A stretch of 64,000 nucleotides of DNA from Chloroflexota bacterium (GCA_014360805.1 JACIWU010000001.1:3327-67326); one strand, 5' to 3'. Positions 11,072-46,501 are shown, counted from the stretch's first letter. Numbers and translations: made by a program. Notes: generated from the sequence alone by a model not told the origin.

Positions 11072-13235
11072 CTAGCGCACCTCAATCGGATAGAACCCAA
11101 TGCCCAAGGTTCGCTCGTCCAGGCTGCCGGGCACCGAGTCCTTGGGCACAAAACTGCCGCCCAGATACCGGAACGTAACGAGGTTGAAATCGCGCCCCAG
11201 CGGGAGCGCTACATCCGTCAGCACATCCTTGCGCATGTCAAACGTGCCGATCTCCCGCCCGTTCACCAAAATGCGCAACCGACCGAAGTCCCCGAACGTG
11301 CCGCGAACGTGCATCTTCACCGGCGTGAGCAAGATATGCGCGGTTCTTGCCTTCTCAGTGTAGATGAGCATCCGCGCTGTGGCCTGCATCCAGCGGACGC
11401 CCGTCCCGGGGTCCGGACCGTACCATCCCGACTGGTACAGCACGCTCAGGCCCGATTCATTCGGCATGGCGATGGCCCCGTTGATGTCCAGATAGCGAAT
11501 GGAATCATCCAGCATAAACCCGTAGCGTCCGGCCACTACGACGGCCCCCAAATTCGGGCGGAACATGTGGGCACAGGGCAGCGGCGCAGTGCCGCAGCGG
11601 TCGCCCTCCTTCGGCAGGTACACTACAAACCCTGCGTTGGTTACGCGGCTCTGATACGCCGTTTTCGGCAAGGCACTGAAACCGGCATCCGACCCAGGCG
11701 CTACCAAATACGGCGTGCGGATGGGCGACAGAAACAGGAAAAAGGCCAGCACGATGGCGAGCACGAAGCCCGATTGCGGCAACTCTCCCGCATCCGTCTC
11801 GCCCACCAGCCTCGTCGCGGCCACGGTCAAAGCCCCAACCGCCAACCCCCAGAACGCCCCCATCCCCAGGCGGGGACTGGGAACCGTCAAGAACCACGCG
11901 ACCAACGCCACGATGGGCGGTAGCAGGACGAGCCAAAGGCGCTTGCGGCTCGCCTGTCCGCCGCACTTGGGGGCGAACAGCCCGGCCAATCCCGCCACGA
12001 GCGCGACGCCAATGGCCCGAGGCACGTCCGCCGGCAGGCTGTCGGCCCACTTGCGTACCCACGCCATATCCGCCAGCACGTCGGCCCAGAAGACCTGCGG
12101 CGTGCGCACCCACGACTGTAGCCACTTCGCCTCGCTGGCGACCAGCGCGCGGGGCACGCGCCATGGCACGTTGACCGCACCGAAGGTGCTCGGGTACACC
12201 GGGTAGCCGCTCAGGATAATGCCCCGTGCCATCCACGGCACGACGACCAGCAAGACCGCCGCGCAACTCCGCCCGAGGATTGCGACAATCTCGCGAGGCG
12301 CACGCCCGGGGCGACGCGCCACTTCCACACCGAGCGCCACGGCGAAAATGCCTATGCCCAACACGGCAAAACTCCGCTCCACCACGACCCCGGCGCACGC
12401 CATCAGCGCGAACCAGACAAGCCAGAACTGCGCCTCGGCCGGCTCCATCTCCCCGGACCGCGCGAGAAACCCCAGCAACTGCCCCAGCATCAGCACCGCA
12501 AGGACAAAGACCGGCAAGGAGGGAGACAGTGTGGCGATGTTGCCGCCGGAGACCTCTACCATCACGGGCGCCAGCAACAGCGCGTAGTACAGGCGATAGG
12601 CGCGCTCGCTGTCGCGCCCCACAAACAGAGCCGCCAGGCTCCGCACCGCATACGCCATCAGTACGGTGGCCAACAAACCGCTGGCCAGATGCAGCGCCCG
12701 ACCCGTCCATTCGCCAGCGTCCAGCATGGCCGCGTACAGGTAGTACGTGCTGTTGAACGCCAGTCTCCCATGCACGTTGCCCAGCCCGGGCACGATCGGA
12801 TACGATTTCGCCCAGAGCATGGATTGGATTCGGTACAGAGCATCGTCGTAGTTGGCCGTGCCCGCCGTGGCTAGATTGGCGAACCACAGGCCGATGATCG
12901 CCGTGGCCAGCCAGACCCGCTTCCGCCCTCGCCATTCCGCCTGGATCAGCGCCCACACGTCGCGCCAGTGCAGCCCCAGCCCCGCCAGGCCCAAAAGCCA
13001 CACCACCGTCAGCGCCAGCCAGTTGACGGCGAAGAAGATGTGCCAAATCTGGAGAAGCGCAAGCGTCAGCGCCCAGCCGATCCAGAACGCGAGGAACACC
13101 CTGCGCGGGAAGGGCACCACCCGCCCGAGTCGCGGCGCGCATCGTAACCCCAACAGGCCCACGCCGCTGAACACCGCGAACAGGCCCACCCACGAGAGGA
13201 GCATAAACGACGCTGGCTTCAGCAATTCAAGCATG
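11072..13235 (-). CDS. Large polytopic membrane protein (about 12 or more TM segments plus a C-terminal soluble domain of about 200 aa), possible GT-C-fold glycosyltransferase
   Basis: 721 aa from ATG 13235 (MLELLKPASF). Many hydrophobic helices. Acidic loop motif YDDALY early in the protein. The C-terminal beta-rich domain is unassigned. Confidence 0.6.
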
Positions 13236-13478
13236 TCGCACCACCCGGTCGCAACAGTCTTTCGCCACGGACAACAGCGGGATTTGCAATTGCACCAACC
13301 GCGCCTGCCGTCGGAACGCGAGGCCATAGGCGCATTCCCCGGCGCGCGGCGCTATCATACCCGTTTTCGCATCCCTGTCAACGTCGTGCGCCCCGCTGTG
13401 GGTCGCAGCGTCCTCGACGGTGAAATCCAGGCCCTTCACCCCGCACCCCCAGCCGTGAATCCCGCACACGTCGTCTTT

Positions 13479-17637: not shown

Positions 17638-18756
17638 ATGGCAAACAAACAATGGGTATCCTTCGCTGTCTCGCTGGGAGGTCTTGTCCTGTTGGTAGCG
17701 TGCGCTGGCCCCGCAACTTCAAGCCCTACGGCCAGGCGTACCGTGCCTATCGGCACAGTCGCAGTGGCCACAAAGGCCCATCCCACAGAACCCCCTTGGA
17801 CTAGCACGCCCGCCCGCAAACCCACAGCCACCCCCATGTCCACCGCTACGCCGCAAGCCGTCATCCCCATTGACGGAGCGCGCAGTGTGGCCTTTCACCC
17901 GAGTGGGCGATGGGTGGCCTTCGGCACTCTGGACGGCGAGGTGATCCTATGGGACATCCGCGAGAACCGCGAAGTGCGCCGCATGAAAGAGCACAGCGGC
18001 ATGGTCGGTACTGTGGACTTCAGCGCCGATGGCTCACTCCTCGCGTCGGGCAGCGCCGACAAGACCGCCATCGTATGGGACGCGAATACGGGGGAACGGA
18101 AGCATCGCCTAATCGAGCATTCCGCCGAGGTTGCCGGCGTGGCCTTTGCCGACTACGGCGCGTGGCTGTTCACCGGCAGCAGGGATGGCTATGTGTGGAT
18201 GTGGGATGCAGACGACGGCACCAAGGTGGCCTATACCCAGGGGCCGTCGCAGGTCGTGGGCATCGCCTACAGCCACACGCGCCTGCTAGCAATGGCCCGC
18301 CAGGATGGCCTGGTCATAGTCGCCGACTGGCAGGCCCAGAAGGACAAATTCGTGATCCGCGCCTTCCCCGATCTACAGCAGGGGCAGACGACCTACGCAC
18401 TGGGCTATCCCCGCATGGCCTTCAGCCCAGATGGCTCCTTGCTGGCCTGCCCGTCGCTCTTCCTTCAGGCTGGCGCGTCGCCTGGAAAGGCGTATCTCTT
18501 TGACATGCGCGCAGGTCAGAACGTGGCGGAGTTCCCCGGCAACCCTCGCGCGACGGCCTTCAGCCCCGATGGTACACAACTGGCACTCGGCCACTTGTCC
18601 GGCGCTGTAGAGGTATGGGACGTGAAAAAGAAAACCAAGTCTCTGACGTTCCCCGGAGCCGGCGTCGTTTGGGATCTGGCCTTCAGCCCCGATGGGCGCT
18701 CCCTGGTCGCCGTAGGCACTCTGGGCGTGCAAATCTGGACCATACCGGCCGATTAG
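17638..18756 (+). CDS. WD40-repeat lipoprotein with a PT-rich linker
   Basis: Signal peptide plus lipobox LVAC. PT-rich segment. Multiple WD repeats (GSADKTAIVWD, GSRDGYVWMWD, VEVWD). Confidence 0.85.
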   Translation: MANKQWVSFAVSLGGLVLLVACAGPATSSPTARRTVPIGTVAVATKAHPTEPPWTSTPARKPTATPMSTATPQAVIPIDGARSVAFHPSGRWVAFGTLDGEVILWDIRENREVRRMKEHSGMVGTVDFSADGSLLASGSADKTAIVWDANTGERKHRLIEHSAEVAGVAFADYGAWLFTGSRDGYVWMWDADDGTKVAYTQGPSQVVGIAYSHTRLLAMARQDGLVIVADWQAQKDKFVIRAFPDLQQGQTTYALGYPRMAFSPDGSLLACPSLFLQAGASPGKAYLFDMRAGQNVAEFPGNPRATAFSPDGTQLALGHLSGAVEVWDVKKKTKSLTFPGAGVVWDLAFSPDGRSLVAVGTLGVQIWTIPAD

Positions 18757-29906: not shown

Positions 29907-30590
29907 GTGGAGATCGCGCCGAACGTCCATCAGATAGAAGGCATCCCGCCCGTCAGCAACGCCTACTTGGTTATAGCAAACGACGGGCTGATCCTGATAG
30001 ACACGGGCATCGCATGGGCGGCCAAGGGCGTGCTCGCCTACATCCGACGCCTGGGATTTGAGCCGTCGGCGGTGAAAGCCATTTTTATCACCCACGGTGA
30101 CGGCGATCACATCGGAGGGCTGCACGCGCTTGTGCGGCAGACCGGCGCGGCGGTCGTAGCGCACCAGGCCGAGGTCGCGCTGGTGGAAGGCCGCGAGGTG
30201 CGCCGCCCCACCAATCCGAGTTGGGCCGATCGGCTCACGGCCCCGATTGTTCGGGTGTTCATGCCCTCCCGGCCCACACCGGTATCGCACCCGGTCGCGG
30301 ATGGCGACTCGGTCTTCGGGCTGGAGGTCATCCACACGCCCGGCCACTCGCCCGGCAGCGCGTGCTATCGCCTTCCCGCGCAGGGGGTGTTGTTCGTCGG
30401 CGACGCCATGACTCACTTCGGCGGGCGGCTGGCCCTCCCGCTGAAGTCCTACACCACCGACATGGCCCAAGCCATCCAGTCCATCCAGCGAATTGCCCAG
30501 TGCGAGTTTGATGTGTGCGGGTTCGGGCACGGCCCGGCACTCTTGCACGACGCCCGCGCTGTGGTCGCCGATTTCGCAGCCCGCCTGTAG
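29907..30590 (+). CDS. MBL-fold metallo-hydrolase
   Basis: ITHGDGDHIGG (HxHxDH) motif. Downstream His and Asp ligands. GTG start. Confidence 0.8.
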   Translation: MEIAPNVHQIEGIPPVSNAYLVIANDGLILIDTGIAWAAKGVLAYIRRLGFEPSAVKAIFITHGDGDHIGGLHALVRQTGAAVVAHQAEVALVEGREVRRPTNPSWADRLTAPIVRVFMPSRPTPVSHPVADGDSVFGLEVIHTPGHSPGSACYRLPAQGVLFVGDAMTHFGGRLALPLKSYTTDMAQAIQSIQRIAQCEFDVCGFGHGPALLHDARAVVADFAARL

Positions 30591-30617
30591 CACTGCCCAA
30601 CTCCAAGGAGGTATGAG

Positions 30618-31022
30618 ATGACAGAAGAAGCGCCCCAACCCGTCCGACGCTGCGCCAACTGCGGCGCCGAACTGCGCCCTACCGACCGGTACTGTGGCGA
30701 GTGCGGCCTGCCCACCTTCGTGCCGCCCCCCGCCCAGGCCACGCCTTCCGCAGAAACGCCGGCCGAAAAAATCCCACGCCCCGCCCCTGGCCCGTCGGAC
30801 AATCGGACGTGGGCCATCGTTACGGGGATCATCCTCATCCTCATAGGGGCCGTCTCTTGCGGCGTGGGCGCCCTGGTGATGCTGGGAGCGTCCATGATGG
30901 CGACCGACACCGACTCGGGCTGGATCACGGCGACTGCCGGCCTCTGCTGTGTGCTGCCAGCCCTGGTGCTCATGATTGGGGGCGGGGTTGTCTGGTACGT
31001 GTGGGGGCGCAAGAAGTCCTGA
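30618..31022 (+). CDS. Zinc-ribbon domain membrane protein
   Basis: RCANCGAELRPTDRYCGECG, Pro-rich linker and two TM helices. Same architecture as the 16486 gene. AAGGAGG RBS. Confidence 0.6.
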   Translation: MTEEAPQPVRRCANCGAELRPTDRYCGECGLPTFVPPPAQATPSAETPAEKIPRPAPGPSDNRTWAIVTGIILILIGAVSCGVGALVMLGASMMATDTDSGWITATAGLCCVLPALVLMIGGGVVWYVWGRKKS

Positions 31023-31047
31023 CCGCACTCGGCTAGCGACCTAGCGT

Positions 31048-31076
31048 TTGACAAGGATATCACAATGACCTAGAAT
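31048..31076 (+). promoter_or_regulatory. Consensus sigma70 promoter for the kimA-trkA operon
   Basis: TTGACA (31048-31053), 17-nt spacer, TAGAAT (31071-31076). Short leader to the GTG at 31094. Confidence 0.5.
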
Positions 31077-31093
31077 GAGATACCCCGTAGGCC

Positions 31094-32992
31094 GTGAACC
31101 GAATTGTTCCTGCGGGGTATTTCTATCAGTCGGAAGCGGGTGAAAACCACGTGGCTCGTTCATTCAGCCTGCGGCGCATCCTGATTGGGCGACCGCTGGC
31201 CACTGCACAACTAAAACATGAGCGTCTGACGAAAGTGAAGGCACTGGCCGTCTTCTCGTCCGACGCGCTGTCTTCGGTGGCCTACGCGACCGAAGAGATC
31301 ATGCTCATGCTCATCGTCGCCGGCAGCGCAGCCGTGGGACTTGCCTGGCCCATCGCCCTGGGCATTGCCACGCTTCTGGTCATCGTGGCGTTCTCGTACT
31401 ATCAGACAGTGCATGCCTACCCGAAAGGCGGCGGCGCGTACATCGTCGCCCACGAGAACCTGGGCCAATTGCCGGGGCTGACAGCAGCCGCGGCCATTCT
31501 CACGGATTACGTGCTCACCGTGTCCGTGAGCATCACCGCCGGCGTGGCCGCCATCACCTCGGCGTTTCCGGCCTTGTATCCGCACCGAATTCTGCTGGCG
31601 CTTTTCTTCGTCGCGCTCATCATGACCCTGAACCTGCGCGGCGTGCGCGAATCGGGCACCATCTTCGCGATTCCCACGTACCTCTTCCTGGCCATCATGC
31701 TATCCATGCTGGCGGTGGGGTTTGCGCGGTGGATTGCCGCGGGAATGCCGCCCGCCCAGCCCCCGCGCATAGACTACCCCGCCGTGCAAGGACTGACCCT
31801 GTTCCTCATCCTGCGGGCTTTCTCCAGCGGGTGCGCGGCCCTCACCGGCATTGAGGCCATCAGCGACGGCGTGCCCGTCTTCAAGCCGCCTGAGTCCGAC
31901 AACGCCGGCAAGACGTTGATCGCCATGGCGGCGCTCCTGGCGACGATGTTCCTGGGCATCACGTTCCTCACCCACCAGTTTGGCATCGTGCCCAATGAGA
32001 TGACACACGAGACGCTTGTCTCCCAACTGGGCCGGTATGTGCTCGGCGAAGGCTCGCCGCTGTACTTCGCGCTCCAGGTAGCCACCATGCTCATCCTGGT
32101 GCTGGCGGCAAACACCAGTTTCGCCGACTTCCCGCGCCTGTCGTCCATCCTGGCCCGCGACCGCTACATGCCGCACCAGTTCGCGAACCTGGGCGACCGG
32201 CTCGTGTTCTCCAACGGGATCATCACGTTGGCGCTGGCGTCGTCGGCCCTCATTGTGCTGTTCGGCGGCCAGACCACCCGCCTCATCCCGCTGTATGCCA
32301 TCGGCGTATTCCTGTCGTTCACGCTCTCACAGGCGGGAATGGTCGTGCGATGGTGGCGTCTGAGAACCCACCATTGGCAACTCAAGGCGGCCATCAACGG
32401 GCTTGGCGCGCTGGCGACCGGCGTGGTGCTCATCGTGATCGCCGCGACAAAGTTCGCCCTGGGCGCCTGGATCGTCCTGCTCTGGATACCGATCTTCATC
32501 TCCTTCTTCCTGGCGGTGCACCGCCATTACCAGCGGGTCGCAAAGCAACTGTCCCTGGAGAACCGTGGCAGCCTCCCGCCGATCCGTCGGCACCGCGTGA
32601 TCGTCCCCATCGCCGACGTGCATCGGGGGGTAATCGCCGCCCTGAACTATGCCCGCTCCATCTCGGACGACGTTACGGCCGTGTATGTGGAAGTAGACCC
32701 CGCCGACACGCCAAAGGTACAGCGAAAGTGGGCAGACTGGGGCGAAGGCGTGCGGCTCGTAACGCTGAAATCCGAGTATCGCTCCATCATCGGCCCGCTG
32801 ATTGAGTATGTGGACAAGGTGGATGACCCCAATCGCCGCGACCAGGTGGTAACCATCGTGCTGCCACAATTCGTCCCCGCCAGGCCGTGGCACAATCTGC
32901 TGCACAACCAGACGGCGATCCTCATCCACCTGGCATTTGTATTCCGGCGCGACGTCATGGTAACCGACGTCCCGTTCCATCTTGAGGAATAG
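31094..32992 (+). CDS. kimA: KimA (YdaO)-family K+ transporter, APC superfamily, with a C-terminal cytoplasmic domain
   Basis: Blocks KVKALAVFSSDALSSVAYATEEI and YPKGGGAYIVAHENLGQLPGL...LTDYVLTVSVSITAGVAAITSAFPAL closely resemble KimA from B. subtilis as recalled from memory. 12 TM plus a tail of about 170 aa. The exact start is uncertain. Confidence 0.8.
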   Translation: MNRIVPAGYFYQSEAGENHVARSFSLRRILIGRPLATAQLKHERLTKVKALAVFSSDALSSVAYATEEIMLMLIVAGSAAVGLAWPIALGIATLLVIVAFSYYQTVHAYPKGGGAYIVAHENLGQLPGLTAAAAILTDYVLTVSVSITAGVAAITSAFPALYPHRILLALFFVALIMTLNLRGVRESGTIFAIPTYLFLAIMLSMLAVGFARWIAAGMPPAQPPRIDYPAVQGLTLFLILRAFSSGCAALTGIEAISDGVPVFKPPESDNAGKTLIAMAALLATMFLGITFLTHQFGIVPNEMTHETLVSQLGRYVLGEGSPLYFALQVATMLILVLAANTSFADFPRLSSILARDRYMPHQFANLGDRLVFSNGIITLALASSALIVLFGGQTTRLIPLYAIGVFLSFTLSQAGMVVRWWRLRTHHWQLKAAINGLGALATGVVLIVIAATKFALGAWIVLLWIPIFISFFLAVHRHYQRVAKQLSLENRGSLPPIRRHRVIVPIADVHRGVIAALNYARSISDDVTAVYVEVDPADTPKVQRKWADWGEGVRLVTLKSEYRSIIGPLIEYVDKVDDPNRRDQVVTIVLPQFVPARPWHNLLHNQTAILIHLAFVFRRDVMVTDVPFHLEE

Positions 32993-33003
32993 AGGCAATT
33001 CCG

Positions 33004-33672
33004 ATGAAATTCATTGTCGTGGGGTGTGGGCGCACCGGCGCAACGCTGGCGCAATCGTTATGCCGCAAGGGGCATCAGGTGGCCGTCATTGACAAGGACG
33101 AGCGCGCGTTTTCCAGGCTTGGCGCGGGATTCCGCGGGCGCACTTACGAAGGGCTTGCCTTTGACCGCGATGTGCTCCTGCGAGCGGGCATCCAGGATGC
33201 TGAAGGGCTGGCCGCGCTCACCAATGACGAGGCAGCCAACATGATCGTGTGCCGCATTGCGAAACTCGCCTTCAAGGTGCCAAACGTGGTCGCGCGACTC
33301 TACGAACCCGAACGAGCCTCGCTCTACAAGAGCATGGGCGTGGCGACCGTGTCATCGGTAACGTGGCGGGTGCTGCGCCTGGAACAGTTGCTGTGCCAGC
33401 CCACCCTGAGCGTCGTGGGCAGCCTGGGCAACGGCGAGGTTCAGGTTGTAGAGGTTCAGGCCACCGAGGGGTTGGTGGGCCGCCTCGTCAAGGAGTTTGT
33501 CCACCCAGGCCAGACGACGGATGTAGCGGTGCTCCACGGCGGTGCGGCATCCTTGCCTACGATGGACACGTCGCTGGCAGAAGGCGACCGACTGCGCTTG
33601 GCCGTCGCGTCGGACTACCTGGACAAATTCAAAGCCTGGCTGGAAAATCTCAAGAAAGAGGAACGATCATGA
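33004..33672 (+). CDS. TrkA/KtrA-type RCK protein (TrkA-N NAD-binding plus TrkA-C)
   Basis: GCGRTG Rossmann motif followed by a TrkA-C domain. 222 aa. Confidence 0.85.
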   Translation: MKFIVVGCGRTGATLAQSLCRKGHQVAVIDKDERAFSRLGAGFRGRTYEGLAFDRDVLLRAGIQDAEGLAALTNDEAANMIVCRIAKLAFKVPNVVARLYEPERASLYKSMGVATVSSVTWRVLRLEQLLCQPTLSVVGSLGNGEVQVVEVQATEGLVGRLVKEFVHPGQTTDVAVLHGGAASLPTMDTSLAEGDRLRLAVASDYLDKFKAWLENLKKEERS

Positions 33673-34364
33673 GAGTCGTCATCGTAGGTGGCGGCAAGGT
33701 CGGTTCGTACCTGGCAGCGCTGCTCCTGGAAGGCCAGCATGAAGTATACGTTGTGGAAAACCGCCCCCAAGTGCTGGCGCGCCTTCACCGCGAACTCCCA
33801 ACCGAGGCTATCGTGGACGGAGACGGCCTGCGCCGTGAGACTCTGGATTTGGCCCACGCCGACCGCGCCGACGTCCTCGTAACCGTTACAGGCGACGACG
33901 AGGTGAATCTGGCCATCGCCCTCATGGCGAAAACCGTCTACAAGATTCCGCGCGTTATCGGCCGCATCAACAACCCGCGCAACGCCTGGCTGTTCACACC
34001 CGAGATGGGCGTGGACGTGGCGGTCAACCAGACGGATTTGCTGGCCAAACTCATTGTGGAAGAGATGTCGCTGGGCGACATGATGATTCTCCTCCGGCTC
34101 CGCAAAGGGGAGATTTCGCTCGTTACCGAGAAACTGGAACCTGGCGCGCCGGCCGAGGGCAAGCGCGTGGCCGACCTATCGCTCCCCAAAGACTGCCTCC
34201 TCGTCGGCGCAATCCGCGAAGGCGACATCCTGGTGCCCCGAGGGGATACGGTTCTCCAGGCTCACGATGAGATCCTCGCGCTGGTGCGAACCGGCTCGCA
34301 CATGGCTTTCCGCAACCTGCTGGCCAATCCGGCGCGGGCAGAAGCCGTAGAGACTCAAGACTGA
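33669..34364 (+). CDS. TrkA/KtrA-type RCK protein, second copy
   Basis: GGGKVG Rossmann motif plus a TrkA-C domain. ATGA start/stop overlap with the upstream gene. Confidence 0.85.
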   Translation: MRVVIVGGGKVGSYLAALLLEGQHEVYVVENRPQVLARLHRELPTEAIVDGDGLRRETLDLAHADRADVLVTVTGDDEVNLAIALMAKTVYKIPRVIGRINNPRNAWLFTPEMGVDVAVNQTDLLAKLIVEEMSLGDMMILLRLRKGEISLVTEKLEPGAPAEGKRVADLSLPKDCLLVGAIREGDILVPRGDTVLQAHDEILALVRTGSHMAFRNLLANPARAEAVETQD

Positions 34365-34476
34365 CCCCGCCGCAATGGCCCGCATCGGCGCAGCGCGGGC
34401 GAGGTCATCGGCGATAACCGCACACTCCGGCGCAGTGTCACTGCACGGAGGACATTGACGAAAGGATGGGTAACGC

Positions 34477-35349
34477 ATGTGGCAAGAATACCTGTTTGCG
34501 ACCTCGGTAGAGCACGCGCTGGAATTGCTAGGCCAGTATGAGGGGCGTGCCCAACTCATCGCGGGAGGCACAGACCTGGTGCTCCAAAGCCAGCGCGGCG
34601 AATGTCCCGCCACCGTCATTGTGGACATCACCCGCATCCCTGGCCTGAATTACATCCAAGAGCAAGACGGCCATATCGTCGTCGGTGCGCAAGTTACCCA
34701 CGCCCAGATCGCAGCGTCATCTCTGATACGCGAGAAGGCCCCCATCCTCGCCATGGCCTGCGCGCAGGTCGGCGGCCCGCAAATCCGAAACGCCGGCACC
34801 CTCGTGGGCAATGTGATCAACGCGCAGCCCGCCGCCGACGGCGCTGTGGCCCTGTTCGCGCTGGACGCCGAACTGGAAGTCGCAACCCCCGAAGGCCGGC
34901 GATGGGAGCCGATCGCCCACGTGTACCGCGGCGTCGGTGTCTGCACCATCAACCCCTGCCAGGAGATGGTAACGGCCGTCCGCTTCAGATCCCTCACAGG
35001 CGCTTGCGGATGCAACTACCAGCGCTTGGCCCGCCGCAAAGCGTTGACGCTCCCCACGCTCGTGGTGGCGGTGGTGCTGGAGATGGCCGGCGACGCCATC
35101 AAGTGGGCGCGCATCGCCATCGGGCCGGTCGCGCCCACGCCCTACCGCGCCGCCGACGCCGAGGCTTACCTCATCGGCAAGAAGGCAGAAGAGTCGGTCT
35201 TCGCCGAGGCCGGGCGACTCGCCGCCGCCAAGGCCCGACCGCGCGACAGCCTGATACGCGGTTCTGGCGAATACCGGACGGCCATGGTCGGGGTGTTGGT
35301 GCGGCGCGCGCTGGCTGCGGCTGCCCAGGAATGCCACGGGAGGCGATAA
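34477..35349 (+). CDS. Xanthine dehydrogenase / CO dehydrogenase family FAD-binding subunit (CoxM-like)
   Basis: FAD-binding PCMH domain with AGGTDL. 290 aa. Confidence 0.85.
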   Translation: MWQEYLFATSVEHALELLGQYEGRAQLIAGGTDLVLQSQRGECPATVIVDITRIPGLNYIQEQDGHIVVGAQVTHAQIAASSLIREKAPILAMACAQVGGPQIRNAGTLVGNVINAQPAADGAVALFALDAELEVATPEGRRWEPIAHVYRGVGVCTINPCQEMVTAVRFRSLTGACGCNYQRLARRKALTLPTLVVAVVLEMAGDAIKWARIAIGPVAPTPYRAADAEAYLIGKKAEESVFAEAGRLAAAKARPRDSLIRGSGEYRTAMVGVLVRRALAAAAQECHGRR

Positions 35350-43371: not shown

Positions 43372-43400
43372 TTGACGCTTGAACCGATGGAGGCTAAACT
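43372..43400 (+). promoter_or_regulatory. Sigma70-type promoter candidate for the first GT39 gene
   Basis: TTGACG (43372-43377), 17-nt spacer, TAAACT (43395-43400). Confidence 0.45.
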
Positions 43401-43443
43401 CCACACACCGACCCATGCGAATACTGCATATCGGAGGATTCCC

Positions 43444-44958
43444 ATGACAACCGAAACCCGCGATACCCGGCTTGCATGGCTGCGACGGCACCACGAGGTC
43501 ATCCTCCTGGGCATCATCCTCCTCGCCGCCCTCGCCCTGCGCCTGTACGGCCTGGAGCGCAGCAGCCTTTGGCTGGATGAACTGATGCAAGTTCAGGCCG
43601 CGCGCCGCCCGTGGTGGGCCGTGCCAAAGGCCGCCCTGGGACATGATGGCTCAGCGCCTCTAGACTACCTTATCACGCACTTCGTGTACTACCACATCGG
43701 CCGCTCCGAGGGCATCCTGCGCCTGCCGGCCGTGCTGTGGGGCGTCCTCTCCGTCGCAACGGTTTACTTCCTCGGCAAGCGCATGTTTGACAAGACGACG
43801 GGATTCCTGGCCGCCGCGCTCCTCACCATCCTCCCGTCCCACATCTACTACTCGCAAGAGGTGCGCCCGTACAGCCTACCCGCGCTCATGGTGCTGCTGG
43901 CGACCTTCGCGTTCTACCATGCCGTGAGTAGGAACACCCGTGGGGCATGGGCGCTGTACGGGATTACCCTGGTCATTGGGATGTACTCCCACTACTACGT
44001 GGCCATTGTGGGCATTCTCCACGGCGCGTACCTGGTGCTGATGGCGCTGGCGAAGCGCCTGCCGTGGAATCGCCTGCTCCCGTACGTGGTCGCGGCGTGC
44101 GCGGCGGGACTGCTGTTCCTGCCCTGGCCCCTGTCGGACACGATCACGACATCCCAAACTTTTCGCATGCCGGGCGTAGGTACCTTGTTCTCCGCACCGT
44201 TTGTGTCCACAGGGGTGAACTACAAGTTCACCCTGTTACATCCGCTCACGTGGTTTGCAGGGTTCGTGTGGCTTTCCGCACTTGCGGGAGTCGTTCTAGT
44301 TATCACGGGAGGCTCGGCCGCACGGAATAACATAGGGCTCCTTGCTGTGGTCGTTCTATTCGGACTAACAGCGGTTGTCACACTGGACTACACAGCACCC
44401 TACTTCTTCTCCACCCGCCAATTCCTTCCCTTTGCGCCGCTGCTGATACTCCTGGGGTCGGCGGGGGCGCTCGCCATCGTTCGCGCCGTGTCGCGACGCC
44501 TGGCGCCGCACCTGCCCGGCGATGCCGTCGCGGCCGCGGCCGCTGTCGTACTCGTCCTCTTCGCTGCCGGAACTCTTTCCGGCGCGCTGTCGGACATCTA
44601 CCGTTACAAGAAGGAAGACTGGGGAACCGCAAGCCGGTATCTAATCCAGTATGCCCACCAAAACGATGTCATCATCGCTCGCCATCCGTATTTCAAATAC
44701 TACTACGCACCCGAACTAGCCAACCAGATTATCGCGCTCACAGACGTGGGTACAATCCAGACCCAGGCCAACAAACATGCCCGCGTGTGGATCCTGGCGG
44801 AAACCGTGTGGCGCAGATATGGCTACGTGCCCGACGTGGTCGCGTGGATCGAAGCCACAAAACCGCTGGAAGTCAAGAGGTTCAGCGGCCTGCGGCTCTA
44901 CCTCTATTCCGCCACACTCACGCCCCAGCAATTGGAAGCGACTCTGAAGCAGTGGTAA
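43444..44958 (+). CDS. Glycosyltransferase family 39 (PMT/ArnT-like GT-C) membrane protein, paralog 1
   Basis: 504 aa. Multi-TM N-terminal core with a DE motif in the first loop (LWLDELMQV). The N-terminal 240 aa and the final 20 aa are nearly identical to the downstream paralog. Confidence 0.8.
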   Translation: MTTETRDTRLAWLRRHHEVILLGIILLAALALRLYGLERSSLWLDELMQVQAARRPWWAVPKAALGHDGSAPLDYLITHFVYYHIGRSEGILRLPAVLWGVLSVATVYFLGKRMFDKTTGFLAAALLTILPSHIYYSQEVRPYSLPALMVLLATFAFYHAVSRNTRGAWALYGITLVIGMYSHYYVAIVGILHGAYLVLMALAKRLPWNRLLPYVVAACAAGLLFLPWPLSDTITTSQTFRMPGVGTLFSAPFVSTGVNYKFTLLHPLTWFAGFVWLSALAGVVLVITGGSAARNNIGLLAVVVLFGLTAVVTLDYTAPYFFSTRQFLPFAPLLILLGSAGALAIVRAVSRRLAPHLPGDAVAAAAAVVLVLFAAGTLSGALSDIYRYKKEDWGTASRYLIQYAHQNDVIIARHPYFKYYYAPELANQIIALTDVGTIQTQANKHARVWILAETVWRRYGYVPDVVAWIEATKPLEVKRFSGLRLYLYSATLTPQQLEATLKQW

Positions 44959-44992
44959 GATGTATTATGAACCCTTGCAAGGGAGGATTCTC

Positions 44993-46501
44993 ATGACAAC
45001 CGAAACCCGCCATACGCCACTCGCATGGCTGCGACGGCACCACGAGGTCATCCTCCTGGGCGCCATCCTCCTCGCCGCCCTCGCCCTGCGCCTGTACCAA
45101 CTGGAGCAGGACAGTTTCTGGATTGACGAACTGACCCAAATCAACCATTCCCGCGTGCCGCTCCTTCGGGTATTCAAGGCCGCCCTGCTTGATGATGGGA
45201 GCACACCCCTAGACTACCTTGTTACCCACTTCGTGTACTACTACATCGGCCGCTCCGAGGGCATCCTACGCCTGCCGGCCGTGCTCTGGGGCGTCCTCTC
45301 CGTCGCGACGGTTTACTTCCTCGGCAAGCGCATGTTTGACAAGACGACGGGATTCCTGGCCGCTGCGCTCCTCGCCATCCTTCCGTCCCACATCTACTAC
45401 TCGCAAGAGGTGCGCCCGTACAGCCTACCCGCGCTCATGGTGTTGCTGGCGACCTTCGCGTTCTACCATGCCGTGAGTAGGAATACCCGCGGGGCGTGGG
45501 CGCTGTACGGGATCACCCTGGTCATCGGGATGTATTCCCACTACTACGTGGCCATTGTGGGCATTCTTCATGGCGCGTATCTGGCGCTGATGGCGCTGGT
45601 GAAGCGCCTGCCGTGGAACCGCCTGCTCCCGTATGTCATCGCGGCGGGCGCGGCGGGACTGTTGTTCCTGCCCTGGGTACTGGCAGACCAGTTCAGATCG
45701 GGCTATGCGTTCCAGATGCCCAGCAAGAGCGTCTTGCTTTCGGCAGCCTTCGTACCCCGCGGCGGCGATGCCCTCATCGCAAACTTCCGCCCGCTGACCG
45801 TATTCGTGGGTTTCGTCTGGGCCTGTGTGCTGGTGAGCGTGGGCTTGAGCATCAGGGGTGGCTCGGCCGCACGAAATAACATGGGGCTGCTCGCACTGGT
45901 AGTCCTCGGCGGAATGGCCGTGGCAGTCGTACTGGACTACCTGGGTTCCCACTTCTTCCCCACTCGCCATTTCCTTCCCTTTGCGCCGCTGCTGATACTC
46001 CTGGGGGCGGCGGGGGCGGTAGAAGGCATGCGCGGAGCAGCCCGTTCCGTCCGCAGAGAGCCGACGGAGGCCATGAACACCCTCATAGTAGTATTGCTCG
46101 TGGCACTCGCAGCATGGACGCTGGCAACACCGATTTCGGAGGTGTATCGGCACAAGAAGCAGGATTGGCGCGGTGTAGGGCGATATCTTCTTCGTAACGT
46201 CGCACAGGGGGACGTAGTACTCCTCCGCATGACATTTGATGTGGAATTCTACGCACCTGAGTTGAAAAACCATATCCAGCCCCTTCGCAGTCTGAAAACC
46301 ATCCAAGATGCAGCAAAAGCCCATCAGCGTGTGTGGATAGTGGATTGGTCAAGCGCGCTCCGGCGCTACGTGCCCGATGTGGCCCATTGGCTGGAAGCGG
46401 AAAAGCCTCTGCGAATCCGAGGGTTCACCAGCATGGAACTCTACCTCTACTCCGCCACACTCACGCCCCAGCAATTGGAAGCCACCCTGAAGCAGTGGTA
46501 A
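44993..46501 (+). CDS. Glycosyltransferase family 39 (PMT/ArnT-like GT-C) membrane protein, paralog 2
   Basis: 502 aa. FWIDELTQI DE motif. The 5' 750 bp and 3' 80 bp are near-identical to paralog 1, and the middle periplasmic part is divergent. Confidence 0.8.
   Translation: MTTETRHTPLAWLRRHHEVILLGAILLAALALRLYQLEQDSFWIDELTQINHSRVPLLRVFKAALLDDGSTPLDYLVTHFVYYYIGRSEGILRLPAVLWGVLSVATVYFLGKRMFDKTTGFLAAALLAILPSHIYYSQEVRPYSLPALMVLLATFAFYHAVSRNTRGAWALYGITLVIGMYSHYYVAIVGILHGAYLALMALVKRLPWNRLLPYVIAAGAAGLLFLPWVLADQFRSGYAFQMPSKSVLLSAAFVPRGGDALIANFRPLTVFVGFVWACVLVSVGLSIRGGSAARNNMGLLALVVLGGMAVAVVLDYLGSHFFPTRHFLPFAPLLILLGAAGAVEGMRGAARSVRREPTEAMNTLIVVLLVALAAWTLATPISEVYRHKKQDWRGVGRYLLRNVAQGDVVLLRMTFDVEFYAPELKNHIQPLRSLKTIQDAAKAHQRVWIVDWSSALRRYVPDVAHWLEAEKPLRIRGFTSMELYLYSATLTPQQLEATLKQW

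Follow-up and report, generated by a model that had tools for sequence, protein, structure and literature searches.

Rings built from RCK subunits are the textbook gating apparatus of K+ channels and of Kef/Kht antiporters, and those of the TrkA/KtrA type are known from their association with TrkH/KtrB. In the TrkAH systems of Vibrio parahaemolyticus and Escherichia coli a single four-domain TrkA of 458 amino acids (aa) works with a channel of the K+ transporter superfamily, and two-subunit TrkAs occur in Thermotoga (TM1088A/B, PDB 3l4b) and Acaryochloris (pMB03), where adjacent RCK genes in A-then-B order, with Rossmann nucleotide motifs, are encoded with TrkH and thought to serve it. The K+ importer KimA is known as a stand-alone symporter under the control of cyclic di-adenosine monophosphate (c-di-AMP), which acts both through a riboswitch and through direct binding to the protein (PMC10284832 among others); in Bacillus the kimA gene is monocistronic and lies behind that riboswitch, and its product is inhibited by the dinucleotide. 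Here we describe a locus that joins elements of both systems: within a 64,000-nucleotide (nt) stretch of DNA from a Chloroflexota bacterium (GCA_014360805.1 JACIWU010000001.1:3327-67326; hereafter the window, meaning this whole stretch), a kimA-like gene without a riboswitch is followed by two coupled RCK genes, RCK1 and RCK2. The resulting KimA-RCK1-RCK2 arrangement is a conserved module that recurs across phyla, a conclusion well supported by the surveys presented below.

The assignment of the first gene to the KimA family, put forward in the original prediction from distinctive sequence blocks, holds: both SSDALSSVAYATE and YPKGGGAYIV...LTDYVLTVSVSITAG are found in the translation, which phmmer aligns with Bacillus subtilis KimA (YdaO; PDB 6s3k) at E=2e-170, query 25-631 versus KimA 4-606, with ~46% identity over the full length, and the further solved B. 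subtilis KimA structures 8b70 and 8b71 are matched as well. Because the match to 6s3k spans query 25-631, it takes in the C-terminal cytoplasmic domain that had likewise been predicted, and the two proteins have in common the APC fold of 12 transmembrane (TM) segments followed by a C-terminal cytosolic domain; hydropathy analysis of the window protein gives 11 predicted segments. We further placed the sites named in the structural work on KimA (PMC10284832), in B. subtilis numbering, on an alignment of 84 sequences comprising the window protein and 83 relatives. The window protein and nearly all of the 83 relatives share the K+ ligands D36, Y43, T230 and Y377, and likewise E233, T121, D117 and S125, so that the K+ site together with E233, T121 and D117 is the same as in B. 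subtilis KimA; by contrast, R337 and N237 of the latter are replaced by His and Asp, respectively. Within the c-di-AMP pocket P479, H579, N580 and Q581 are kept, and two positions differ: S582 is Thr, as it also is in Staphylococcus aureus KimA and in Kups, and R337, which is not essential for c-di-AMP binding, is His (PMC10284832). Given the full-length KimA match and the conservation of the K+-site residues, the window protein is very probably a K+ importer. Two observations on other family members may be recorded here: in two Nitrospira-type KimA loci (L012 and L013) the K+-coordinating Asp36 is replaced by Asn with all other site residues retained, and a 1041-aa KimA homologue (P0208) carries at its C terminus DUF4118, a membrane domain characteristic of the sensor kinase KdpD, which suggests a KimA-sensor fusion.

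The two genes downstream encode the predicted halves of a split TrkA. Both contain a Pfam TrkA_N domain (RCK1 E=1.5e-25, 90.2 bits; RCK2 E=2.9e-26, 92.5 bits), and both feature the GxGxxG motif together with an acidic residue at the end of beta2 (GCGRTG...VIDKD in RCK1, GGGKVG...VVENR in RCK2). TrkA_C, with a Pfam cut-off of 27 bits, is recognized in RCK2 (45.7 bits, E=6.3e-12) and is borderline in RCK1, where it falls just below that cut-off at 25.5 bits, and the C-terminal region of RCK1 aligns throughout with the RCK_C of its relatives. For both proteins the best-scoring solved relative is Vibrio TrkA 4j9u (E=6e-27 for RCK1, E=3e-33 for RCK2), joined by Thermotoga TM1088A in the case of RCK1 (E=1e-23) and TM1088B in that of RCK2 (E=1e-27). 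The TrkAH systems are the probable model for nucleotide gating, although the window has two genes in place of their single four-domain TrkA, and an APC-fold secondary transporter in place of their channel. In alignments RCK1 corresponds to the short "A" subunit of two-subunit TrkAs, with 35% identity to that of Acaryochloris, and RCK2 to the long "B" subunit. The correspondence is not complete: RCK1 has an extra, divergent RCK_C that short A subunits lack, and RCK2 carries a subfamily signature derived from our alignment, R[VI]N[NH]P[RK]xxW-L-F (RxN[NH]P..W-L-F in relaxed form), that is absent from the TrkH-linked Acaryochloris protein.

In the window, whose G+C content is ~64% and whose closest relatives are metagenome-assembled Anaerolineae (Chloroflexota), the three genes are tightly packed: an 11-nt gap separates the kimA stop from the ATG of RCK1, and RCK1 and RCK2 overlap by an ATGA at 33669-33672, exactly as the original prediction had described, so that the observation at 31048-34364 is real and each of its elements confirmed in place. 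One of the relatives, GCA_014874485.1, has the identical gene order, flanks included. The kimA reading frame is open from a first GTG at 31094 (632 aa) to the TAG at 32990-32992. We favour the GTG at 31151 as its start, since the homologues are mostly 613 aa long and the alignment to B. subtilis KimA takes in the 632-aa form only from residue 25 onward; the leader is then ~70 nt long and lies behind a sigma-70-like sequence that we would expect to act as the promoter. A consensus scan of 30500-35000 returned two promoter-like sites against a shuffle mean of 1.0, and no intrinsic-terminator-like sites were found in the same interval. The contrast with the Bacillus riboswitch, also drawn in the original prediction, is borne out: at no point in the window does an Rfam family, the c-di-AMP riboswitch RF00379 included, attain its gathering score, and RF00379 is likewise missing from six other RCK-linked loci, whereas it lies directly 5' of kimA in five of six Firmicutes loci scanned as a positive control (90-107 bits).

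A co-occurrence survey of the kind suggested alongside the original prediction shows that the arrangement is no peculiarity of this genome. A scan limited to a single genome of each species, in which a diverse KimA alignment served as query, gave 80 loci at 45-60% identity, in 16 of which RCK1-type and RCK2-type genes adjoin KimA, always in the order RCK1 to RCK2. The pair lies on the same strand and 3' of kimA in 12 of 36 loci from Chloroflexota and in one of eight labelled Acidobacteriota, and it is present in three of the four Actinomycetota loci, two of them divergent from kimA and one convergent; it is missing from all loci of Firmicutes (0/11), Nitrospirota (0/8), Cyanobacteria (0/4) and Bdellovibrionota (0/4), and from a remainder made up of Armatimonadota, Rokubacteria and three unplaced or mislabelled records (0/5). 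The single contig labelled Acidobacteriota (L034) may be mis-binned, as its KimA falls inside the Chloroflexota clade. A close relative at 63% identity (L004) keeps the KimA-TrkA_N-TrkA_N triplet amid entirely different flanking genes; because the gene order recurs amid unrelated flanks and in different phyla, it goes beyond what chance would give. Across the 13 same-strand loci of the genome collection and four close relatives (L001-L004), the KimA-RCK1 gap ranges from -4 to +61 nt and the RCK1-RCK2 gap from -4 to +34 nt, with one exception each. In the KimA tree the RCK-linked members fall in three clades, namely that of the window (4/4), Acidimicrobiia (3/3) and a large Anaerolineae clade (12/22).

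Cultured organisms are represented as well: the chromosome of Nonomuraea gerenzanensis has KimA divergent from RCK1-RCK2. In Streptomyces sp. BHT-5-2 the RCK pair is followed by an open reading frame (ORF) with a TrkA_N domain and then by KimA, and this ORF may represent a third K+-related component in Streptomyces; it brings to mind Mycobacterium tuberculosis, where ceoBC is co-essential with the channel-like Rv3200c. We also considered a loss of c-di-AMP residues in RCK-linked KimAs and discarded it, as there is no consistent pattern and R337 is mostly retained; the HNQ[ST] motif is degenerate in one Anaerolineae clade, whether RCK neighbours are present or not.

A second, reverse survey started from the regulator and revealed a further class of neighbour. 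Metagenomes scanned with an RCK2 alignment and the signature R[VI]N[NH]P[RK]xxW yielded 80 loci at 45-77% identity, and RCK1 lies directly 5' of RCK2 in 66 of the 67 with sufficient upstream sequence, the exception (L124) having ~390 bp upstream of RCK2 without an RCK1 match. The gene before RCK1 could be read in 46 loci: it is KimA in about 20, a P2-type cation ATPase of ~940 aa in about 22, a protein that we term APCx, here with a KimA-type C-terminal domain, in two, something else in two, and TrkH in none. This subfamily therefore stands beside KimA or a P2-type ATPase and never beside TrkH, which sets it apart from the known two-subunit TrkAs; in the more distant pair of Acaryochloris (24-35% identity), included as a control (L172), TrkG/TrkH comes immediately after the RCK genes. 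In the ATPase Pfam recognizes E1-E2_ATPase, Cation_ATPase_N and Cation_ATPase_C; the closest NCBIfam models, each of which scores below its cut-off, are those of type II Ca2+ and Na,K-type pumps, and the ATPase gene often overlaps those of the RCK pair (four clusters are listed in Table 1). One such cluster, from the cultured Streptomyces fungicidicus p1 (L171), is annotated ATPase-TrkA-TrkA, with overlapping genes and universal stress proteins on its flanks. APCx itself (~620 aa, 9-11 TM segments) often lies 5' of the ATPase; neither Pfam nor NCBIfam gives a match for it, the resemblance of its membrane domain to that of KimA is distant (E ~1e-16), and its members share 60-73% identity. In L095 and L101 the APCx membrane domain is joined to a KimA-type C-terminal domain and stands directly before RCK1. 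In the RCK2 tree KimA-linked and ATPase-linked pairs are separate, with one exception (L114). P-type ATPases under RCK control appear not to have been described before.

That no TrkH/KtrB gene is present in the window, as originally predicted, was confirmed by several searches. No six-frame ORF of the 64 kb matches at E<=1, either with phmmer using E. coli and Acaryochloris TrkH or with hmmsearch using a two-sequence profile; PF02386 is not among the results of a Pfam scan of ten of the window's larger ORFs, and a hydropathy screen of its called genes reveals no TrkH. This screen left one polytopic membrane protein of the window unassigned, a product of the minus strand that has no Pfam match at E<=1e-4 and is not TrkH-like (Table 1). 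More broadly, none of 12,661 ORFs from the window and about 170 loci is TrkH-like at E<=1, with the Acaryochloris locus L172 as the TrkH control; the detector is sensitive across phyla, since E. coli TrkH matches Acaryochloris TrkH at 5e-48. Likewise, trkH/ktrB is absent from the flanks of ~85 loci with an RCK pair of this subfamily, up to 10 kb per side, contig permitting. It is important to note that in E. coli trkA is not linked to trkH, so that a missing neighbouring TrkH is weak evidence when taken alone; stronger evidence comes from the tracking of the neighbour by the phylogeny of the RCK pair and from the pair's attachment to P-type ATPases as well.

The coordinates of these features are collected in Table 1, together with those of other genes in the window. 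Directly 5' of the kimA promoter lies a gene for a zinc-ribbon protein, which is probably outside the module because it is kept at that place in the close relatives L001 and L002 but not in L004. Farther away are a bacterial WD40-repeat protein and a tandem pair of membrane-protein paralogues, both with PMT_2 glycosyltransferase domains; the gene of the second begins 2 nt past the end of that of the first.

Table 1. Coordinates of the module, of related clusters and of other genes (positions refer to the window unless a locus is named)
Feature	Position	Strand	Description
Putative sigma-70-like promoter	31048..31076	+	TTGACA-17 nt-TAGAAT; consensus scan, 11/12 matches
kimA-like gene	31151..32992	+	613 aa from GTG 31151; predicted K+/H+ symporter, KUP/KimA family
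RCK1, predicted first subunit of split TrkA	33004..33672	+	222 aa; TrkA_N Rossmann (GCGRTG...D) and divergent RCK_C
RCK2, predicted second subunit of split TrkA	33669..34364	+	231 aa; TrkA_N (GGGKVG...E) and TrkA_C
ATPase-RCK cluster	L098:4437-8666		
ATPase-RCK cluster	L120:4471-8693		
ATPase-RCK cluster	L093:1046-7054		
ATPase-RCK cluster	L171:1517-5645		Streptomyces fungicidicus p1
APCx	L093:1046-2917		
APCx	L117:2618-4468		
APCx	L126:2654-4495		
APCx	L100:393-2357		
APCx	L143:2132-4171		
APCx	L095:416-3211		with KimA-type C-terminal domain
TrkA_N-domain ORF	L169:3663-5720		Streptomyces sp. BHT-5-2, between RCK pair and KimA
Zinc-ribbon protein	30618-31022	+	134 aa, with membrane segment
Unassigned membrane protein	11072-13327	-	751 aa, ~11 predicted TM segments
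WD40-repeat beta-propeller	17638-18756	+	372 aa, N-terminal lipoprotein-like signal sequence
PMT_2-domain membrane protein	43372-44958	+	528 aa
PMT_2-domain membrane protein	44960-46501	+	513 aa

In light of these results we propose that the locus may be a three-gene K+-uptake operon in which KimA would act as a proton-coupled K+ importer and RCK1 and RCK2 would provide the two halves of a TrkA, assembling, by analogy with Thermotoga TM1088A/B, into a cytoplasmic nucleotide-binding ring. Such a ring would attach to KimA, and in the sister clade to the P2-type cation ATPase, instead of to a TrkH/KtrB channel, and would adjust the activity of KimA to the nucleotide status of the cell (ATP/ADP, possibly NAD(H)), a form of sensing that would replace the c-di-AMP riboswitch control of kimA expression seen in Firmicutes. 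The ligand is probably an adenine nucleotide, by analogy with TrkA, which is reported to shut TrkH when ADP-bound and to open it when ATP-bound (PMC6987127). We favour an action of the RCK pair on its neighbour because the coupled module diversifies with the adjacent transporter and never stands beside TrkH. Judged from the sequences, the chances that the split TrkA directly regulates KimA are about even, and we advance somewhat more tentatively the broader proposal of a distinct split-TrkA subfamily that would form a portable ring, detached from TrkH/KtrB and docking on two unrelated transporter folds, those of KimA and the P2-type ATPase. The interpretation given in the original prediction is supported, and neither of the outcomes that it named as refuting, a trkH/ktrB gene in the same operon or a failed KimA assignment, was observed. 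The gene identities, the operon-like arrangement, the conservation of the module across phyla, the split of the RCK2 tree by neighbour and the lack of both a nearby TrkH and the riboswitch are observations; the direct regulation of KimA by the pair, the assembly of the ring, its physical contact with KimA, the ligand that it would sense and the sense of its action, be it activation or inhibition, are inferences.

Several observations weigh against such a role of the pair. KimA is a domain-swapped homodimer (PMC10284832), on which a TrkA-type ring would have to dock, and since its c-di-AMP pocket is largely kept, the window protein may need no additional regulator. About ten of the 22 KimAs in the large Anaerolineae clade have no adjacent RCK genes, and the plasmid-borne KimAs of Leptolinea HRD-7, Rhodococcus and S. 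mirabilis are solitary, without RCK neighbours, so that the linkage is not obligatory. Fusions of KimA with RCK domains were found neither among 270 KimA relatives searched by phmmer with RCK1 and RCK2 nor in a Pfam scan of the ten longest KimA representatives. Finally, in M. tuberculosis co-essentiality joins ceoB/ceoC, which resemble the RCK pair (see below), to Rv3200c and Rv2694c and not to Rv2690c, the membrane protein encoded next to them.

These points bear on two alternatives in which the RCK genes have another target. The pair could be an ordinary two-subunit TrkA that gates a TrkH/KtrB encoded elsewhere, its adjacency to kimA serving only to co-express two independent K+ systems; we consider this unlikely, even though the RCK proteins are closest to genuine TrkA (4j9u, TM1088A/B), their order matches that of the A and B subunits in the Acaryochloris TrkA-TrkA-TrkG cluster, and the incomplete linkage to kimA, like the separation of trkA from trkH in E. 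coli, would fit it. A TrkH partner would have to be remote in all of the ~85 loci whose flanks were searched, whereas the outgroup pair does adjoin TrkH; a common remote partner does not predict the split of the RCK2 tree by neighbour, KimA on one side and ATPase on the other; and in many lineages translational coupling ties the RCK genes to kimA. The neighbour-tracking pattern is therefore not what would be expected of a pair that serves a remote TrkH. The pair might instead serve a K+ pathway other than TrkH, such as a channel of the Rv3200c or Kch type, or be a soluble sensor of nucleotides or K+ with several targets, with KimA a mere neighbour in a K+-homeostasis cluster. The transposon-sequencing co-essentiality that groups ceoB and ceoC with Rv3200c and Rv2694c points in this direction, as does the TrkA_N-domain ORF between the RCK pair and kimA in Streptomyces sp. 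BHT-5-2, and the subfamily also occurs beside P-type ATPases and is thus not bound to a single partner. This too seems improbable to us: in most loci KimA or the ATPase is the only membrane protein that adjoins the pair, the RCK2 clades are neighbour-specific, and no channel gene recurs in the flanks.

A different objection concerns the transporter itself, which could be an amino-acid or polyamine permease with functionally unrelated RCK genes next to it. Public annotations do read 'amino acid transporter' or 'APC family permease', and the sole Pfam match is AA_permease_2 (103.9 bits, E=1.3e-29). Yet the NCBIfam amino-acid transporter models score far under their cut-offs (23.6 versus 556.8 bits), the match to KimA is full length and includes the KimA-specific cytosolic domain, and the K+-coordinating and proton-coupling residues known from the KimA structure are all conserved, which together make a permease scarcely credible. 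We thus retain regulation of KimA, and in the sister clade of the P2-type ATPase, by the RCK pair as the preferred explanation. Neither a KimA-RCK nor an ATPase-RCK system is described in the searchable literature on KimA and TrkA, on RCK proteins and P-type ATPases, or on CeoB/CeoC and TrkH. The original prediction had called an RCK-regulated KimA an unusual combination; this stands in that it is unreported there, but with 16 of 80 species-level KimA loci it is not rare. A module conserved across phyla, in which RCK proteins would regulate K+ transport by a partner of a new class, appears to have gone undescribed.

The nearest parallel among known genes may come from M. tuberculosis, whose CeoB/CeoC (Rv2691/Rv2692) are encoded, as in the window, in an operon of two ~220-aa TrkA-like genes to which no TrkH partner has been assigned in the literature. 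With Rv2690c on the complementary strand, followed by Rv2691 and Rv2692, these genes are arranged like the divergent KimA/RCK1-RCK2 loci of Acidimicrobiia (L081, L085) and Nonomuraea. Rv2690c may be KimA-like, and M. tuberculosis is not known to have a TrkH; the exact window protein is not on record, and a homologue search with the KimA of L081 returned only Acidimicrobiia and no mycobacterial sequence. Rv2690c, which is divergent from ceoBC and adjoins it, has been described as a "probable integral membrane protein" in publications that assign it to no family, papers up to 2026 describe the mycobacterial Trk system as "two TrkA proteins", and CeoBC is reported to affect host colonisation and cholesterol use by M. 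tuberculosis.

If the proposed role of the RCK pair is correct, RCK control would extend to new transporter folds, those of the KUP/KimA symporters and of P-type ATPases, and would need a new docking geometry. Control of the same importer would then have found two solutions: Firmicutes rely on an RNA riboswitch, whereas Chloroflexota and Actinomycetota would employ a protein sensor. TrkH-less 'Trk' systems of Actinomycetota, for example CeoB/CeoC of M. tuberculosis, would in turn be KimA-RCK systems, and the TrkH-less "Trk" of mycobacteria would gain a candidate for the membrane partner that it is missing.

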